Made by a program: the position numbers and the translations under genes
Shown: positions 56,192 through 62,929 of the stretch, one piece after another
How the letters are laid out: the number at the start of each line of letters is the position of its first letter
Numbering within the stretch: position 1 is the stretch's first letter
NCBI GenBank assembly: GCA_013289705.1
Contig: JABCZM010000002.1
Coordinates: 14,848 to 78,847, forward strand
DNA from: Candidatus Saccharimonadota bacterium
Lineage (GTDB): Bacteria; Patescibacteriota; Saccharimonadia; Saccharimonadales; UBA4665
Length of the DNA: 64,000 nucleotides
Direction of reading: 5' to 3'
Notes under the pieces: generated by a model
Database searches by the model: none
Told to the model about the DNA's origin: nothing
The model's input: the letters and a program-made list of their open reading frames with translations, nothing else

Positions 56192-57658
56192 ATGCAGCAG
56201 ACAAGTTTACCCATATTTATTGAAGAAGAGGCCGAAACAAACAGTGTTGAGTTCAAAACCTCCGCTGATGGTAAGCTGCCGAAAGATATCTGGCACACCG
56301 TATCAGCCTTTGCCAATAGTAGTGGCGGCAAGATTATTTTTGGGATTACGCCTGAGGGCACGCGAGTAAACCTCTCGAAAACCAGCGTCGACAGCCTCCA
56401 ACAAGACATCGTCTCGCTCTGTAGCCAAGGCTTTAGTAGCACAATTACGCCCGACATTCAGTACAGCGAGGGCGTACTGGTGGTTTTTATACCCCCATCT
56501 CCAGCACAGCTTCGACCAGTTTACATGAAAAGCAAGGGTGCTGGCAGCGGCACATACGTACGCGAAGGCTCTTCAAACCGCATTGCCAATGATGAAATGA
56601 TCCGTCGTTTTAGCGTTGCTGCTCGAGGTGGAGCCGAAACACTAGATTTCGAAGAAATTAGCTTTGCGGATTGCCTAGCAATGGAGCTCGTTAACGAGTA
56701 TATAGACCTTATAAACCAAAAGAAGACGAACATGTACCAAAACTTTACTGCTGAAGAGGTTTTGATAAAATTACGAGCCATCACAAAAACACTACACCCG
56801 ACGTTGTTCGGTCTATTAGCATTCGGGAAGGCTGCAACGCCACAAGAGATAATCTCTCCCACGGTGAGCATTACCACCACTCAATACCCCGGACTTACCA
56901 AGGTTAATGAGGAAGACTTCTCTGAAACATACGTCGACAATCGCGAGTTTTACGGCAACGCCAAGCGTCAATTCGAGGATGCTTTTACCTTCATGAAATC
57001 AAAACTGCCCGTGCGCGGTACGATAGATAGTAACGGCAAGCGGCGAGATTATTTCGTCATACCCGAGGTTGCACTGCGTGAGGCCCTAGCCAATGCTTTA
57101 GCGCACAGAGATTATTCGACCTATTCGTCATCAATTCAGATTGACATTTTTTCGGATCGTATTGAGATTATTAATCCTGGGGTAAGCTTGGTGCCCATAG
57201 AGCAACTGGATCACGCTCCATCTGCCACCCGAAATCCACTCCTTATGAACTACCTAAAGGACTACGGTATTACCGATCAAAAAGCTCGAGGCATACGAAC
57301 CATCAAGGTCTCTCTGAAAGCAGCCGGGCTGCTTGCCCCAACATTTGAAAATGTCGGCCAATCTTTCAAAGCAACACTTTTTGCATCGGCCTTTATCTCT
57401 CCAGAGGATAAAGCTTGGCTACAAAAATTCACTTCGTTTGAGCTCAATGAACGACAACTCAATGCACTGACACATGCAAAAAATAACCCCGAAGGCATAA
57501 ATAATGGCGAATATCGTGACTACAACAGCATGAACAACGTTCGCGACGACAAAAAGGCAAATAAAGAGCTCCGTCAACTTGTGGAAAAAGGTATCTTGAT
57601 CATATCTGGCGAGAATAAGGCGAGGCGGTATGTACTGCATTCAGACTATGCTCAATAA
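56192..57658 (+). CDS. AlbA_2 (Schlafen-like, divergent AAA) + HATPase_c_4 + C-terminal wHTH protein
   Basis: ETNSVEFKTS...WHTVSAFANSSGGKIIFGI (AlbA_2). REALANALAHRDYS...IDIFSDRIEIINPG (HATPase_c_4). C-terminal LNERQLNAL...RYVL (wHTH-like). ATG at 56192 preferred over TTG at 56183. Confidence 0.7.
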   Translation: MQQTSLPIFIEEEAETNSVEFKTSADGKLPKDIWHTVSAFANSSGGKIIFGITPEGTRVNLSKTSVDSLQQDIVSLCSQGFSSTITPDIQYSEGVLVVFIPPSPAQLRPVYMKSKGAGSGTYVREGSSNRIANDEMIRRFSVAARGGAETLDFEEISFADCLAMELVNEYIDLINQKKTNMYQNFTAEEVLIKLRAITKTLHPTLFGLLAFGKAATPQEIISPTVSITTTQYPGLTKVNEEDFSETYVDNREFYGNAKRQFEDAFTFMKSKLPVRGTIDSNGKRRDYFVIPEVALREALANALAHRDYSTYSSSIQIDIFSDRIEIINPGVSLVPIEQLDHAPSATRNPLLMNYLKDYGITDQKARGIRTIKVSLKAAGLLAPTFENVGQSFKATLFASAFISPEDKAWLQKFTSFELNERQLNALTHAKNNPEGINNGEYRDYNSMNNVRDDKKANKELRQLVEKGILIISGENKARRYVLHSDYAQ

Positions 57659-57758
57659 GTTTATCGCCCCGATATCGCCCGTTTATCGCCCCGATATCGC
57701 CCCATCCGCACCCCTGTTGGCCGTATTTTATCGCCCGTTTATCGCCCCGATATCGCCC
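57659..57758 (+). repeat. iteron-like array: 22-bp unit GTTTATCGCCCCGATATCGCCC (x3) = seven TATCGCCC 8-mers phased at 11 bp
   Basis: 8-mers start at 57662, 57673, 57684, 57695 and at 57729, 57740, 57751. A longer 33-nt repeat occurs at 57673-57705 and 57729-57761. Confidence 0.9.
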
Positions 57759-57787
57759 CATTTATTACAAACCGCCGAGGAGATTGC

Positions 57788-58822
57788 ATGACCAAAAAGA
57801 CTGCTGCAAAGGTATCGGTAGTAATCCCGAACTGGAACGGCATTGATTCTATCGGTGCCTGTTTGGATTCGCTGCTTGCCCAAACTTACAAGCCACGCAT
57901 TATTGTCGTCGAAAACGGCTCAAAAGACGGCTCACTTAAATTCATACAGCAAAACTATCCATCCGTAGAACTCGTAATACACAAAAGAAATAAAGGGTTT
58001 GCAGGTGGCGTTAATGCCGGCATCCGCAGAGCAATGCGGCATCATGGTGACGAATTTGTGGCTCTGCTTAACAACGATGCCGTGGCGGACGCACACTGGC
58101 TCGAACACTTGCTAGACGATATACAAGCCAATACCGACACCGGTATCGTAACCTGCAAACTAATGGATCAGCACAAAAAACACCTCGACAGCACCGGTGA
58201 TCAATATACCATTTGGGGCCTACCTTTTCCGCGAGGCCGAGGCGAACCAGTGAGCGACAAATACGATGACCACGTGCAAGTCTTTGGGGCCAGCGGCGGC
58301 GCCAGCCTGTACCGCGTCAGTATGCTGGAGCAGATTGGGTTATTTGACGAGGATTTCTTTGCCTACTATGAAGATGTTGATCTTAGTTTTCGGGCACAAT
58401 TGGCTGGCTGGAAGGTGCGCTATGTGCCGGAGGCGATTGCCTACCACCAAATCGGGGCTACCAGCGGTAAAATTAAAGGATTTACGACTCGCCAGACAGT
58501 CAAAAATCTACCGTGGCTACTGTTAAAGAATGCCCCGTTCAGCATTCTGGTGCGTGTTTTGCCGCGATTCATGTTCGCTTACCTGTCGTTTATTATTATG
58601 GCAGCCGCTCGCGATCAAGGCTACGCCGCACTCATGGGCTATTTTCAGATGGTGTTCTTGCTGCCAAAAAAGGTACTGCAACGATTGCAAATTCAGCATC
58701 ACCGCAAAGTAAAATCTTCCTACATATGGAACATCATGACGCACGAACTACCGCCAAACGCGCGCAGGCTACGACTACTGTTCCACCCCATTAAAAGTTT
58801 GGCAAAAGATAGAGACCATTAA
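57788..58822 (+). CDS. glycosyltransferase family 2 (rhamnosyltransferase-like)
   Basis: VSVVIPNWNGIDSIGACLDSLLAQTY, NNDAVAD, GASGGASLYRV and YYEDVDLSFRAQLAGW. Confidence 0.85.
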   Translation: MTKKTAAKVSVVIPNWNGIDSIGACLDSLLAQTYKPRIIVVENGSKDGSLKFIQQNYPSVELVIHKRNKGFAGGVNAGIRRAMRHHGDEFVALLNNDAVADAHWLEHLLDDIQANTDTGIVTCKLMDQHKKHLDSTGDQYTIWGLPFPRGRGEPVSDKYDDHVQVFGASGGASLYRVSMLEQIGLFDEDFFAYYEDVDLSFRAQLAGWKVRYVPEAIAYHQIGATSGKIKGFTTRQTVKNLPWLLLKNAPFSILVRVLPRFMFAYLSFIIMAAARDQGYAALMGYFQMVFLLPKKVLQRLQIQHHRKVKSSYIWNIMTHELPPNARRLRLLFHPIKSLAKDRDH

Positions 58823-58878: not shown

Positions 58879-59289
58879 GTGCTGGACGCACAAAGGGACT
58901 GTATGCAATTTCAGGCTCACGGTGGCATCAATATCTTGGGAGTAGTCGGTACAGTCTATCACTGGGTAGATGTATTGAGTGGGCCCGTGCTGGGATTGGC
59001 GATTGTTATCTGGGCTATCCGAAAATATCTGGCATTTCGCTGGCACCGCACGCAACCAACCATCTTGTTTGAACTGACACCTCCTGCCTCAAGCAAACGG
59101 ACACCGCACGCCACCGAACAGTTCCTTATGAGTCTGCATTCACTGGGCAGGCATCTTACGTTTAGCCAGCGATTGCTCGGCAGAACAGCGGTCTTTTCGT
59201 TGGAACTACCAGCATCGCGTCGCAAGGGTATTCGCTACGCCGTACGAGTTAGGGTTACGAGACGTGTTGAGAACACTATTTTTCGTTGA
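58879..59289 (+). pseudogene. N-terminal fragment of a membrane-anchored ATPase-type gene (resembles the N-terminus of CPR DUF87/T4SS-coupling-like proteins)
   Basis: TM helix LSGPVLGLAIVIWAI, then ILFELTPP...TEQFLMSLHSLG...FSLELPASRRKGIRYAVRV. The ORF ends after about 125 aa, just before a TA cassette promoter. The ATPase body is absent. Confidence 0.35.
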
Positions 59290-59297
59290 ACGTTTTA

Positions 59298-59326
59298 TTG
59301 ACAAACGTATTACGTTTTGCTATTTT
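59298..59326 (+). promoter_or_regulatory. TA module A promoter TTGACA-N17-TATTTT with embedded perfect palindrome AAACGTAtTACGTTT
   Basis: -35 at 59298-59303, palindrome at 59303-59317, -10 at 59321-59326, ATG at 59333 (6 nt after the -10 box, leaderless-type). Confidence 0.5.
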
Positions 59327-59332
59327 AAGGAC

Positions 59333-59578
59333 ATGAGTAATGTTATTTCTAGCAAATACCAGGTTGTCATACCTAAGGCCATACGAAAACAGTTGGGCAT
59401 CAAACCTGGTCAAAGAGTACGTGTCGAAGCGGGTAAAAATGGTGATATCGTTCTAAAACAAGAGCCTGAGCAAAAAAGCTACCGAAGCCTCATTGGTACG
59501 CTTGAAGCCCAGGCCGAAGACCCTGTCGTGCGGATCCGGCGTCTGCGCGACAACTGGAGACGCGGTGATATACATTGA
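59333..59578 (+). CDS. vapB: AbrB/SpoVT-type antitoxin, paralog A
   Basis: MSNVISSKYQVVIPKAIRKQLGIKPGQRVRV. 81 aa. Overlaps the PIN gene. Confidence 0.75.
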   Translation: MSNVISSKYQVVIPKAIRKQLGIKPGQRVRVEAGKNGDIVLKQEPEQKSYRSLIGTLEAQAEDPVVRIRRLRDNWRRGDIH

Positions 59579-59957
59579 TGCCAACATCCTCATATACTTG
59601 CTGGAAGATCATGGCGAAAAAAGCTTGTTTGTAGCCGATACGTTAGATGAGTTCCGAGCAAAACAACAGCCGTTTCTTACCTCGGTAATAACCATCACCG
59701 AGTTTTTGGCCGGTACCCGCACACTGAACAGAGACACGCTCGGTACTATTTCTGGTCTTGGGTTTCAAATTGTCGACGAAACAATTGCCGAAAGCGCAGC
59801 CAGACTCCAAAGAGATAAAAACCTTAAAATCGGCGACGCAGTACACCTAGCAACCGCCATCCAGAACAATGCAGCTGTTTTCTTTACGAATGATAGGCAG
59901 CTTGCAAAGGCAGCTTCGCAGTATTTAGAAGTTAAAACACTGTCGATGGTCGTATGA
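59565..59957 (+). CDS. vapC: PIN-domain toxin, paralog A
   Basis: GTG start giving (M)IYIDANILIYLLED..., ITEFL and GDAVHLATAIQNNAAVFFTNDRQL. The stop overlaps the next ATG (ATGA). Confidence 0.75.
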   Translation: MIYIDANILIYLLEDHGEKSLFVADTLDEFRAKQQPFLTSVITITEFLAGTRTLNRDTLGTISGLGFQIVDETIAESAARLQRDKNLKIGDAVHLATAIQNNAAVFFTNDRQLAKAASQYLEVKTLSMVV

Positions 59958-61051
59958 GCAAGATCGTCATCTGTTCACGCGAATGGAGCGGCAGCACCGG
60001 CCGGTATGCACGAGCCCTGGTCGAGCATTTGCAGGATATCGACACAAAAAATCAGTACATCATACTGCTCAAACCAGAAGACGCTGCCAGCTGGCAGCCA
60101 AAAAACCCGCGATTCTCGGTGCTAGCCTGCCCTCACAAAGAATTTAGCTTCGATGAACAATTTGGGCTCAAAAAACAACTTGAGATTTTACGGCCGGACC
60201 TCGTGCATTTCACGATGGTGCAGCAGCCCGCTTGGTACGGTGGCAAAGTTGTGACCACCATGCAAGACCTCACAACCATCCGTTTTCGCAATCTTTCTAA
60301 AAACCCAATTGTATTCGCTATCAAACAACAGGTCTATCGATGGCTCAATAAAAAGGTGGCAAAAAAATCAGTTGCCATTATTACACCTTCGCAATTCGTC
60401 CGTCTCGACGTGGCAAGCTTTACGCGCATCAATCCCGACAAGATAACCGTTACCCACGAAGGTGCCGATAGAATTACCAACAACCCGGAACCTGTGAAAG
60501 GCCTAGAAAAAGCACAATTCATCATGTATCTTGGCCGACCCATGACTCACAAAAACTTACCACGACTAATTGAAGCATTCAAAAAATTACAGATAGACCG
60601 GCCCGAACTTCGACTCGTGCTTGCAGGCAAAAAAGATGATAATTACCAGAAAATTGAGCGGGTTGTAGCAGCCCAGGGCACTAAAAATGTAGCCTTCACC
60701 GACTACGTAAGCGAAGGCCAGCTTCGTTGGCTCTACGAACACTGTGCAGCCTACGTCTTTCCTTCGCTGAGCGAAGGTTTCGGCCTACCAGGTCTAGAAG
60801 CTATGGCGCATGGCGCCCCAGTGATTAGCAGTAACGCTACTTGTTTACCTGAAATATACGGTGATGCAGTGTACTACTTTGACCCCGTAAACATCGACGA
60901 CATGGCAAAAAAAATCGGTGAGGTGCTTGATAGTGAACGCTTGCGTCAAGAACTGATTGCCGCCGGAAACCTGCAAGTCGATAAGTACTCGTGGCGGCGC
61001 ATGGCCAAGCAAACATTGGCCGTCTACGAACAAGCACTCAAACACACATAA
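59954..61051 (+). CDS. glycosyltransferase family 4 (GT-B)
   Basis: 365 aa. C-terminal YVFPSLSEGFGLPGLEAMAHGAPVISS (E-x7-E). Confidence 0.85.
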   Translation: MSKIVICSREWSGSTGRYARALVEHLQDIDTKNQYIILLKPEDAASWQPKNPRFSVLACPHKEFSFDEQFGLKKQLEILRPDLVHFTMVQQPAWYGGKVVTTMQDLTTIRFRNLSKNPIVFAIKQQVYRWLNKKVAKKSVAIITPSQFVRLDVASFTRINPDKITVTHEGADRITNNPEPVKGLEKAQFIMYLGRPMTHKNLPRLIEAFKKLQIDRPELRLVLAGKKDDNYQKIERVVAAQGTKNVAFTDYVSEGQLRWLYEHCAAYVFPSLSEGFGLPGLEAMAHGAPVISSNATCLPEIYGDAVYYFDPVNIDDMAKKIGEVLDSERLRQELIAAGNLQVDKYSWRRMAKQTLAVYEQALKHT

Positions 61052-62175
61052 TGAGCACTCCAGGTAACGGCAAACAACTACTCAATAGCCTGACATCGCT
61101 CCGGTTTTTTGCCGCCCTACTGGTGTTTCTGTGGCACACGCATTTGTGGGGCAACCATCTCGACAGATACCAGCTTGGCTACGCGGGCGTGTCATTCTTT
61201 TATATGCTGTCTGGTTTCGTGCTGACCTACGCCTATTACAAACGAATTACCATAGGCAAATTTACAGCCATTAAGTCCTACTATATTGCTCGGATTGCCA
61301 AGATTTATCCCGTTCATCTACTGACTTTTGCACTAGCAATACCGCTAGCTTTCTACGTCGTGCATGCCAGTGGCGTTGCAGAATTTCTAAAGCAAGCCGT
61401 TGCCAATGTTTTCCTCGTCCAAAGCTTTTCGCCACATATTCCCTACTATTTTGCCTTCAATGCCGTTTCGTGGAGCATTTCGGATGAGCTGTTTTTCTAT
61501 TTACTTATGCCCGTGTTTATATTCATCGCGTTCCGCCTGCGCAACAAGCTGTCTATTGGAAAACTTGTACTGAGCATGCTTGTTATCTGGATTGCAATGG
61601 TCGCCCTACTAACAGGAAAAGTTGCCGTGCTTGATCAGTGGGCCTATTATGTCTTGCCGTTGATTCGCTTGCCCGACTTTGTCCTAGGCATCTTGCTGTG
61701 TCTTGTATACTGGAAAAGCCAATCGACGAAACTCAATTCTATAAGGACTACGTGATTTAGTCTCGCCGAGATCAGCGCACTCACATTGTTGGTAACGGGG
61801 TTCATCGGCGACGCTCACTTGCCTCAGGCACTGCACTTTGACGTCGGCTTTTTGCCGTTTTGGACCATACTTATCTTCGTATTTGCACATGAGCGTGGCA
61901 TTATCTCGAAGCTATTAGGCCGCCGGCCGTTCGTGTTTCTGGGTGAAATTAGCTTTTCGTTCTACATGCTACACCAGCTTGTTATTCGGTACATCTGGCA
62001 CTACGGGATCAAGCCAGTTGCACCAATCGCGTTCACCATAACACTTGTGGGCAGCGCAGCGCTATTCCTTTTGTACGAGGAAAACATGCGCAAACTAGTC
62101 CGCAACAAGCTCGAAGCTAAGCTCGTTTGGCCAAGAAAAAACAAAGACACAGTGCTAGCAGAAGAGGCATTTTAG
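61051..62175 (+). pseudogene. acyltransferase family 3 (OafA/YrhL-like O-acyltransferase) interrupted by one in-frame TGA
   Basis: LTSLRFFAALLVFLWH start motif and about 10 TM helices. ORFs 61051-61755 and 61786-62175 are in the same frame, separated only by TGA at 61753-61755 (…IRTT*FSLAEISALTLLV…). Combined length of 374 codons fits the family. Confidence 0.7.
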
Positions 62176-62178: not shown

Positions 62179-62227
62179 TACGAACCAATTCGTTTTACTC
62201 TCACTAAATTGCCTGTTGTTTTACGAA

Positions 62228-62256
62228 TTGACAAAGGTTTTACGTTTTGATATAGT
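62228..62256 (+). promoter_or_regulatory. TA module B promoter TTGACA-N17-TATAGT with TTTTACG repeats
   Basis: -35 at 62228-62233 and -10 at 62251-62256. TTTTACG at 62219 and 62238. ATG at 62264. Confidence 0.5.
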
Positions 62257-62263
62257 TGAACTT

Positions 62264-62506
62264 ATGAAAAACAACTCCTTGGCACTGTCCAGTAAGTACC
62301 AAATCGTCATCCCGAAAGCTGCTCGACAGAAAATGGGTCTTGATAAAGCTATCGGCCAGCGCCTGCGTGTGAAGAGTGTCACTGAAAACGAGATTGTTTT
62401 TAGCAAAGAACCTTCTATTGACGACTTCTTGGGCGCGTTTGGTGACACCTTCCCTAAAAATACCGCCGCTAAGATCCGTAAAATGCGTGATGAGGAATGG
62501 GACTAA
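62264..62506 (+). CDS. vapB: AbrB/SpoVT-type antitoxin, paralog B
   Basis: MKNNSLALSSKYQIVIPKAARQKMGL...IRKMRDEEWD. Confidence 0.75.
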   Translation: MKNNSLALSSKYQIVIPKAARQKMGLDKAIGQRLRVKSVTENEIVFSKEPSIDDFLGAFGDTFPKNTAAKIRKMRDEEWD

Positions 62507-62509
62507 ACA

Positions 62510-62929
62510 ATGCTCATCGCACTGGACAGCAACATACTCATCGCCGCCCTGTCGCCACACGAAGAGCACTCCATATGGGCACAGCAACTTATAAAAGATA
62601 TTGCCAGCAACCGCTATCAAGCCGTGGTTTCGTCGATAGCTTACGGGGAAATCTTGAGTTTCAGCACACAACAAGTAGCAAGAGCCCTCGATCTAGGCTC
62701 GTTTCTTAGACAGATTAAAAATTGCGCGACTATAGCGGCAGATGACACGATCTGCTTGGCGGCTGGCGAGCTAAGAAGGACGTACGGCGGCAAGCTCAAG
62801 CTGCCCGATGCACTGCATCTTACCACAGCCCTCAACCAAAAGGCAGATTTATTCATCACGAACGATTTTAAGTTAGCGAAAGTTGCAGAGAGTATCGTAG
62901 CAACCAAGACTTTGGGTGAGTGGGTATGA
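62510..62929 (+). CDS. vapC: PIN-domain toxin, paralog B
   Basis: MLIALDSNILIAAL, YGEIL and PDALHLTTALNQKADLFITNDFKL. Confidence 0.8.
   Translation: MLIALDSNILIAALSPHEEHSIWAQQLIKDIASNRYQAVVSSIAYGEILSFSTQQVARALDLGSFLRQIKNCATIAADDTICLAAGELRRTYGGKLKLPDALHLTTALNQKADLFITNDFKLAKVAESIVATKTLGEWV

Follow-up and report, generated by a model that had tools for sequence, protein, structure and literature searches.

In the type II partition system of R1, ParR binds cooperatively to parC, which consists of two blocks of 11-bp direct repeats around a core, and the resulting complex controls transcription. Regulators of the PhoB/OmpR type place their winged helices head-to-tail on 11-bp direct repeats (the pho box), in which a core of ∼7–8 bp is combined with a free linker. 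The control arrays incA of P1 and incC of F lie downstream of rep genes, and the sites sopC and parS, which are recognized by SopB and P1 ParB, lie downstream of the genes for these proteins. The controller (C) proteins of restriction-modification (R-M) systems with their C-boxes and the omega repressor with its heptad arrays are small dedicated repressors that act at promoters through direct or inverted sites. Here, we analyse a repeat array that resembles each of these in part. It lies in a 64-kb stretch of DNA from a Candidatus Saccharimonadota bacterium (contig JABCZM010000002.1, positions 14,848 to 78,847; 'the window' refers to this whole stretch), where seven copies of the box TATCGCCC are contained in positions 57659–57761, directly behind the stop codon of a gene for a prokaryotic Schlafen protein. 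The array is very probably the docking site of this protein, as judged from its linkage to the gene and from the covariation of the boxes with the predicted recognition helix.

The catalytic motif of Schlafen RNases is defined as E-x4-(E/D)-x-K (PMC13056530). Among 5,930 prokaryotic Schlafens (pSlfns) the second commonest architecture, with 19.2%, is 'HisKinase-HTH', where HTH stands for helix-turn-helix (PMC13056530). The combination of Slfn with the GHKL-type ATPase domain PF13749 has been named the 'Schlatpase' supradomain and is present in 58.6% of 103,533 prokaryotic Slfn proteins; most of its members are small, with either no further domain or a C-terminal HTH, and an HTH is found in >90% of the structurally annotated Schlatpase C-terminal tails (bioRxiv 10.64898/2026.05.29.728809). 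The Slfn+GHKL module undergoes ATP-driven tetramerization and is subject to filament-versus-tetramer control (bioRxiv 10.64898/2026.05.29.728809). Phage defence has been seen for other pSlfn architectures; neither of the two HisKinase constructs conferred it, and the screen did not include the HTH type (PMC13056530). No description of arrays such as the present one is found in the searchable literature on Schlafen or Schlatpase proteins: bioRxiv 10.64898/2026.05.29.728809 contains no repeat or operator term, and 'repeat' in PMC13056530 refers only to repeated assays or searches. As a cognate operator-like array it is of a known kind; what is new is its attachment to a protein class for which this literature describes no DNA target.

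The gene, the array and the next gene are arranged as follows.

56192–57658, forward strand: prokaryotic Schlafen gene (488 amino acids) coding for Slfn, GHKL-ATPase and winged-helix domains (a 'Schlatpase-HTH' or 'HisKinase-HTH' pSlfn).
57659–57702, forward strand: block 1, two tandem 22-bp units that amount to four TATCGCCC boxes (57662, 57673, 57684 and 57695) with 11-bp spacing.
57703–57728, forward strand: centre of 26 bp, a degenerate box-like stretch ATCCGCACCCC followed by CTGTT at 57714–57718.
57729–57761, forward strand: block 2, three TATCGCCC boxes (57729, 57740 and 57751), identical to 57673–57705.
57777–58822, forward strand: family-2 glycosyltransferase (GT2) gene with its ribosome-binding site (RBS) GAGGAG at 57777–57782 and its ATG at 57788 (Pfam assignment for 57788–58822).

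From 57659 to 57761 the DNA reads as GTTTATCGCCCCGATATCGCCC twice in tandem, a 26-nt spacer and then TATCGCCCGTTTATCGCCCCGATATCGCCCCAT. The first box starts 3 nt past the TAA stop codon (57656–57658), the last one ends at 57758, and 15 nt separate the end of the array from the GAGGAG of the GT2 gene. The two blocks are 34 bp apart, i.e. three turns plus 1 bp, and the 26-bp centre thereby keeps the helical phase between them. A super-repeat of 33 nt (57673–57705 and 57729–57761) is 100% identical in its two copies. TATCGCCC occurs seven times in the 64-kb window when both strands are counted, always inside the array (shuffle mean 1.3), and the 22-mer GTTTATCGCCCCGATATCGCCC occurs three times (57659, 57681 and 57737) even with three mismatches permitted, where none is expected. 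Tandem Repeats Finder reports period-11 and period-22 arrays at 57659–57761 and no comparable array in the remainder of the window. The first-pass annotation of this DNA had described seven boxes phased at 11 bp in a 4 + 3 arrangement with 34 bp between the blocks, a 22-mer in tandem at 57659–57702 with a further copy at 57737–57758, a 33-nt super-repeat and nothing similar elsewhere in the window; the sequence reads exactly so in each respect. An open reading frame (ORF) of 47–53 amino acids is called across the array in L001 (6439–6600, corresponding to 57630–57791 of the window) and is almost certainly a repeat artefact.

The array is found again in related genomes. Three boxes spaced at 11 bp were sought in 185,579 representative genomes, and 11 loci were returned. 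Two of these are in metagenome-assembled genomes (MAGs) of Candidatus Saccharibacteria, one three-box locus in each of the two genomes, and have the layout AlbA_2 (Schlafen) homologue, TATCGCCC boxes, GT2; the homologues are 61% and 83% identical to the window protein. Their arrays keep the 11-bp spacing, one of them is also organized as two blocks with a spacer, and the linkers differ (CAC versus CGA/GTT). A conserved box next to a free linker argues for selection. The other nine loci (L007–L013, L016 and L017) are pure 11-bp tandem repeats without a Schlafen homologue nearby. Their hosts include Colimorpha, Phormidium, Chloroflexota, Paraburkholderia and Limnohabitans, their neighbours are unrelated (type IX secretion system cargo, YbeY, DnaB, PhoH), and with neither a Schlafen homologue nor related neighbours we treat them as coincidental. 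It is nonetheless odd that nine unrelated loci share the TATCGCCC core; L009, L010 and L017 run on into TATCG-like variants.

The window protein has >300 close homologues, and scanning metagenomes with their alignment yielded 80 loci with 27–100% identity. Periodicity was scored as the number of 7-mers repeated at a lag of 9–12 nt, with the downstream window taken as the 150 nt past the stop codon and the background windows taken from the same loci. A score of at least 3 is reached in 62 of 76 downstream windows, compared with 0 of 71 upstream windows and 0.6% of 2,916 background windows. When these metagenome homologues are clustered at 90% identity, 39 of the 46 lineages pass a stricter array criterion and most of the remaining ones have imperfect arrays as judged by eye. 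In nearly all lineages the first box starts 0–23 nt past the stop codon. The gene that follows can be GT2, sucC, sucD, ychF, or one for an epimerase, an HD protein or a mevalonate kinase, and it is convergent in five lineages; GT2 is the common neighbour in the closest lineages (L014, L015 and L019), and in L026 and L027 the GT2 homologue is located upstream of the Schlafen gene and does not adjoin the array. Because the downstream gene varies, the array belongs to the Schlafen gene and not to GT2. Synteny is partial (wzm/wzt, GT2, sucCD) and the array travels with the Schlafen gene throughout, a pattern that points to vertical inheritance of this gene with local rearrangement. Boxes of the type proper to each lineage are counted 153 times inside the arrays and six times in 235 kb of flanking DNA, where 7.4 are expected from composition. 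The location between an AlbA_2 and a GT2 gene that was given in the first-pass annotation is therefore retained as far as the AlbA_2 (Schlafen) gene is concerned and is dropped as a link to GT2. The array is conserved in relatives, and with a single locus in the window and in each of the two Saccharibacteria MAGs it does not behave as the dispersed element of the repetitive extragenic palindromic (REP) type that the same annotation had named as the refuting case.

The anatomy of these arrays is shared as well. Boxes within a block are 10–12 bp apart, and the spacing between blocks clusters at 33–35, 44–46 and 56 bp. These are whole helical turns, which places all boxes on one side of the DNA. 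Four boxes per array is the mode (15 of 39 lineages), followed by five (11 of 39), and the window is at the high end with 4 + 3. Several lineages have two-box super-units with alternating box variants, as in the 22-bp unit of the window. Copy number differs between near-identical loci: four boxes in L044 versus three in L047, and five in L035 versus seven in L073. In ten of the 21 two-block lineages the centre contains CTGT(T/C), compared with an expected 5.5% (binomial, 5e-8). This element usually has the form (A/C)C(C/T)CTGTTA and in nine of the ten cases it starts 11–12 or 21–22 nt past the last box of block 1. The lineages that carry it (among them the window, L015, L019, L022, L023, L025, L026, L033 and L074) have different boxes, and the centre could reflect a further conserved partner or an element of DNA shape. 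A consensus scan of 57659–57787 finds neither a terminator nor a promoter. Inspection by eye, which provides leads only, gave nothing consistent across lineages, be it a −10 element at a fixed distance from CTGTT, a −35-like TCGACA within the boxes or resemblances to IHF, dif or pho-box sites.

In the protein encoded by the Schlafen gene, Pfam recognizes SLFN_AlbA_2 (PF04326, residues 18–135, E = 4.9e-16) and HATPase_c_4 (PF13749, residues 316–399, E = 1.3e-19); NCBIfam has no name for it. The full-length AlphaFold2 model, with a predicted local distance difference test (pLDDT) score of 84, consists of a Schlafen-like N-domain, a histidine-kinase-like ATPase domain and a C-terminal three-helix-plus-wing domain. 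Foldseek relates the whole protein to the uncharacterized full-length relative 3lmm, to mammalian Schlafen nuclease domains and to the CA domains of histidine kinases. The only PADLOC match is to the pAgo model, for residues 27–398, which correspond to the Slfn+GHKL part of SLFN-pAgo. The following elements are located within the gene.

56234–56257, forward strand: E15-x4-E20-x-K22, the Schlafen RNase catalytic motif, invariant in alignments A1 and A3.
57080–57094, forward strand: E297-x3-N301, the GHKL N-box (Mg/ATP-coordinating pair), invariant in A1 and A3.
57389–57655, forward strand: C-terminal MarR/ArsR-like winged helix-turn-helix with the predicted recognition helix at residues 450–465 (57539–57586).

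Alignment A1 contains 37 sequences and A3 is cross-phylum. By motif, E297 and N301 are likely to be equivalent to Glu314 and Asn318 (E314/N318) of RzAgo. Judged by sequence and model, the window protein is a prokaryotic Schlafen of the Slfn+GHKL+HTH class, in which all three defining features of the class are found. The 89 C-terminal residues modelled alone reach a pLDDT of 91.6, and Foldseek aligns them with MarR/ArsR winged helices, with template-modelling (TM) scores of 0.6–0.68 to MarR-family proteins including the MepR–DNA complex. This is in agreement with the winged HTH that the first-pass annotation had assigned to the neighbouring AlbA_2 protein. The predicted recognition helix 450–465 has the sequence VRDDKKANKELRQLV with invariant core positions Asp452, Asp453, Ala456 and Leu460 (D452, D453, A456, L460).

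The box differs by lineage (TATCGCCC, TATCGACA, TATCTACC, AATCGCCCC, TACCCCCC, CTATCGACA, GTTATCGACG and TCTATCGACC, and further TTCTATCTACC, TTATCTACA, TTTACCTACA, TCTATCGGACA, ATCCGGACA, CTATAGACC and TCTAACGACA). Its form is a conserved (T/A)ATC-type core plus ∼4–5 lineage-specific bases, as in TATCGCCC(C) of the window. Box distance correlates with helix distance when the rest of the protein is controlled for (partial Mantel r = 0.23, p = 0.0004, n = 36). Mutual information with the box peaks at residues 454, 455, 457, 458, 461 and 462, i.e. at i, i+1, i+3, i+4, i+7 and i+8; the variable positions of the recognition helix are on one helical face and its hydrophobic positions are invariant. 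All 17 lineages with a lysine or arginine at the sixth position of the helix have G at box position 5, and all five with a threonine there have T. In particular, helices with 'DDKKAN' are paired with CCC-rich (G/C/T)CCC boxes, 'DDIRAKK' with TATCGACC, 'DD(IR/RK/RR)ATK' with TATCTACC in two separate lineages, 'DDRRAN' with T(A/T)(T/C)CTACA, 'DDKMANR' with TATCGGACA and 'DDR(Q/K)ARR' with ATCCGGACA. Such covariation, which is modest and partly phylogenetic, is what would be expected from direct readout of the box by the helix.

Arrays accompany the gene in other phyla too. Thirteen plasmid homologues of ∼490 amino acids were compared; ten carry clear analogous arrays, two carry weak ones and one has none. 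The plasmid arrays come from Bacillota, Chloroflexota, Pseudomonadota, Bacteroidota and Thermodesulfobacteriota. They lie upstream of the gene in Chlorohelix (two paralogues), Lactobacillus iners, Staphylococcus epidermidis, Hymenobacter and Ensifer, and directly past the stop codon in Providencia, Desulfosarcina, Pseudosulfitobacter and Paracoccus, and they typically consist of two tandem pairs (2 + 2 boxes) 65–90 bp apart. On the S. epidermidis plasmid (NZ_CP121525.1, L100, 1900–2450 of the locus) the homologue is preceded by at least five copies of a 62-bp tandem repeat that is itself built of AATC boxes every 11–12 bp. The L. iners plasmid (L103) has three 76-bp super-repeats, each with two to three TAATCGTG boxes, and a further two boxes behind the gene. 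In a distant subfamily with 32–38% identity and ∼540 amino acids (L086, L089, L091, L094 and L096) two direct and two inverted copies are present; a DprA-like gene of ∼220 amino acids follows the array in this subfamily. Homologues from outside the Candidate Phyla Radiation (CPR) are located in defence islands (L104, L106, L109, L110 and L114), either between hsdS and hsdR of type I R-M systems or beside DUF1156, PLD-like or HEPN genes, and for several of them the array is just upstream of a restriction or effector gene. Judged from these sequences, the pairing of gene and array appears to be general across at least six phyla.

The linkage of gene and array, the exclusivity of the boxes, the covariation of helix and box and the fold are direct results of the computations. 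From them we infer that the protein physically binds the array, with a stoichiometry and downstream effects that can be outlined as follows. The array would be a dedicated ('private') double-stranded DNA docking site of the Schlafen protein encoded immediately upstream. One winged helix would read one box, and the protomers would form a head-to-tail row along one side of the DNA, with four of them on block 1, three on block 2 and the CTGTT centre in between. The usual four to five boxes per array fit the ATP-driven tetramer reported for the Slfn+GHKL module, and the helical period, together with the occurrence of arrays in either orientation and on either side of the gene, points to double-stranded DNA and not to RNA. 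As the most likely effect, the occupied array would act as a roadblock or an operator and gate the transcription that reads through into GT2 and the genes beyond. Such a gate is possible since the array is located behind the gene's own stop codon and 15 nt before the RBS of GT2, with no terminator between the two genes. Binding would also hold a potentially toxic nuclease on the chromosome beside the site of its synthesis, be it as a side effect or as a second purpose. We consider the docking site together with its gating consequence to be likely. The first-pass annotation had suggested cooperative binding to a same-face array with the winged-HTH AlbA_2 protein as the binder, and the linkage, covariation and exclusivity lend strong, if indirect, support to this proposal.

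Several points weigh against this picture. The covariation is modest, the lineages are related and box distance also tracks overall protein distance. The model does not account for the CTGTT centre, which could be assigned to no promoter element, hairpin or known site. Arrays are absent from homologues of 619–679 amino acids with other C-termini (L101, L102, L105 and L106) and from L098 (509 amino acids). In the clade of the window the array lies away from the protein's own promoter, so that classical autorepression does not apply there, and since the downstream gene is convergent in five lineages, a gate on this gene cannot be the universal role. The G2 box of the GHKL domain (residues 366–368, 57287–57295) is ARG in the Saccharibacteria-type clade and GSG in other phyla; this may change how the window clade binds ATP, and tetramerization becomes uncertain with it. 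Given the convergent neighbours and the unexplained centre, neither the gating account nor an account based on restraint of the nuclease is complete.

In this second account the array would serve as a DNA 'safety catch' or assembly platform, on which several copies of the Schlafen tRNase are either kept inactive as a DNA-bound oligomer or assembled into the active tetramer. The nuclease would be freed or switched when the chromosome or the protein–DNA contact is perturbed, for example upon phage infection, and tight linkage would keep a toxin-like gene from travelling without its DNA restraint. We consider this rather unlikely, and yet it fits two aspects of the data better than gating: the place of the array relative to promoters varies across phyla (upstream, downstream or both) and its tight linkage to the gene does not, and the modal box number of four equals the published tetramer of a homologous module for which filament-versus-tetramer control is reported. 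It also agrees with the presence of boxes only beside the gene, the intact catalytic motif and the defence-island location of the non-CPR homologues. The DNA-binding domain is moreover the last to be made and the array comes directly past the stop codon, an arrangement that might permit capture in cis. On the other hand, the account is purely inferential, four to seven sites would restrain only a handful of molecules, and the Saccharibacteria gene looks vertically inherited in a housekeeping neighbourhood. HisKinase-type pSlfns were without phage defence in the one published screen, which did not include the HTH type (PMC13056530). Stated in full, the array would be a DNA-encoded restraint (a 'DNA antitoxin' or sensor platform) that keeps ∼4 protomers inactive until loss of contact or an ATP-driven rearrangement activates the nuclease; this is a doubtful proposition which, if true, would make DNA restraint a general control principle of Slfn+GHKL+HTH proteins.

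Other explanations dispense with the docking of the Schlafen protein on DNA. The repeats could act as RNA, in the 3′ untranslated region of the Schlafen transcript or in the GT2 leader, bound by the Slfn/AlbA domain or by another factor. The array is probably transcribed, given that no terminator lies between the genes, the orientation of the boxes relative to the gene is constant in the Saccharibacteria-type clade, and Schlafen domains bind and cleave RNA. This is nevertheless highly improbable: the period is that of the DNA helix and the blocks are whole turns apart, other clades have inverted copies and upstream positions that are non-transcribed or in promoters, and the covariation is with the recognition helix of the winged helix. 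A structured RNA or Rfam family is rejected, as the array has no Rfam match at E ≤ 1 and folds with z = +0.98, i.e. it is less structured than its shuffles. Even less credible is an operator or promoter array for some other regulator of GT2 or polysaccharide genes with the Schlafen gene nearby by chance. The 15-nt distance to the GT2 RBS and the GT2 neighbour in the three closest lineages would agree with it. The array, however, follows the Schlafen gene when the neighbour is sucC, sucD, ychF, an epimerase gene, another gene or a convergent one, the GT2 homologues of L026 and L027 are not its neighbours, and the box covaries with the Schlafen helix. The least probable group, largely refuted, comprises replication or partition iterons, a dispersed REP-like repeat, neutral slippage or a contingency locus, and a G-quadruplex or i-motif. 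The tandem 22-bp units with their 11-bp phasing speak for this group, and the conserved box with free linkers, which argues for selection, speaks against it. The plasmid iterons or partition sites listed as options in the first-pass annotation do not survive, as the locus is chromosomal, has no Rep or Par genes and shows no change in GC skew. For replication iterons in particular there is no Rep initiator, the contig is a chromosomal one of 175 kb, the array is G+C-rich and the GC skew is flat-negative across the window, which also speaks against an origin or terminus. A partition centromere (parC/parS/sopC) is rejected on account of the flanks, where genes for a ParA/ParM NTPase or a centromere-binding protein are absent, and a dispersed REP element on account of the confinement of all seven window boxes to the array, the single three-box locus in each of the two Saccharibacteria representative genomes and the count of six boxes outside versus 153 inside over 235 kb of homologous loci. 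Slippage would fit the variable copy number in other lineages (L044/L047 and L035/L073), but four assemblies of the organism studied here have identical arrays, and a phase-variable contingency repeat is discarded for the same reason. In favour of a G-quadruplex or i-motif, the G+C-rich array of the window has many G3–4 tracts on the minus strand, but most homologous arrays lack such C/G tracts, which are confined to the window clade. A DnaA box was also considered, given that TTATCTACA and TTATCGACA resemble TTATCCACA, and was rejected, as the box changes to TATCGCCCC and ATCCGGACA when the neighbouring protein changes.

Upstream of the Schlafen gene there are divergent wzm/wzt genes, a methyltransferase gene and further glycosyltransferase genes, and on the downstream side MazE/PIN pairs, GT4 and an acyltransferase. 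The two MazE-like/PIN toxin–antitoxin pairs (59264–59957 and 62216–62929) are located inside the polysaccharide gene cluster, which suggests that this stretch of chromosome accepts accessory genes. The Acyl_transf_3 acyltransferase is split into ORFs at 60991–61755 (234/254 amino acids) and 61786–62175 (129 amino acids). The split is conserved in other assemblies and the gene may be a frameshifted pseudogene. The window contains no tRNA gene that could mark an integration site, and its GC skew is uniformly negative. Eight metagenome contigs, which reach 175 kb and share one gene order, encode exactly the window protein, and four independent assemblies from metagenomes of this organism have an identical 129-nt intergenic region. 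Three short-read assemblies (Logan; L004, L005 and L006) stop exactly past the second 22-mer, which is what a repeat would cause. In the protein database, many homologues are on very short contigs of 1.6–3.5 kb, and arrays of this type may systematically break short-read assemblies.

Slfn+GHKL+HTH proteins are among the commonest prokaryotic Schlafen architectures, and the array gives their HTH a concrete target. Each gene of this type appears to carry its own co-evolving array of ∼4 phased boxes. It thus becomes possible to test what the HTH senses, whether occupancy of the DNA acts on the nuclease or on transcription alone, and with what stoichiometry the protein binds. The data in addition provide a natural recognition code for a winged-helix family, with helix residues on one side and box bases on the other. 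For the reduced genomes of Saccharibacteria, gene and array represent one of few identifiable site-specific DNA–protein pairs.

Compared with known systems, the array shares with R1 parC the 11-bp direct repeats in two blocks, which face one side of the DNA around a central core, and the protein of the adjacent gene as its binder, which here is predicted. ParR, however, is a small ribbon-helix-helix protein with ParM, an actin-like ATPase, as its partner, and parC is located upstream and contains the operon promoter. In the present case the predicted binder combines its winged helix with a nuclease and a GHKL ATPase in one protein, and the array is downstream, chromosomal and without a gene for a partner NTPase. 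Head-to-tail winged helices, an 11-bp period and a core with a free linker would be common to this locus and the PhoB/OmpR type, if the binding mode is as we propose. The latter are response regulators with genome-wide regulons at promoters, whereas here a single array is found at the 3′ end of the regulator's own gene and the fold matches MarR/ArsR and not OmpR. With iterons and their Rep proteins, SopB–sopC and ParB–parS the locus has in common helically phased direct repeats beside, and often downstream of, the gene of a winged-helix or HTH binder, as well as a private co-evolving specificity. It lacks a two-winged-helix initiator, an AT-rich unwinding element, DnaA boxes, ParA and a replicon, and its boxes are 8–9 bp long compared with 17–22 bp in iterons. 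Like the C proteins and omega, it combines a few repeated sites with an adjacent regulator gene. The C and omega sites time or limit the expression of a dangerous neighbour; in the Schlafen case it is the dangerous enzyme that carries the DNA-binding domain, and the genes downstream in this clade have ordinary metabolic or envelope functions. At the level of the protein, SLFN-pAgo (RzAgo) and HisKinase-HTH pSlfns have the same Slfn + PF13749 GHKL supradomain with intact catalytic and N-box residues. RzAgo differs in that guide RNA and target DNA regulate it via the Argonaute core and not via a fixed genomic site (bioRxiv 10.64898/2026.05.29.728809). By analogy, the closest architectures appear to be R1 parC/ParR, the head-to-tail binding of the PhoB/OmpR type and the iteron or centromere arrays beside the gene of their binder.

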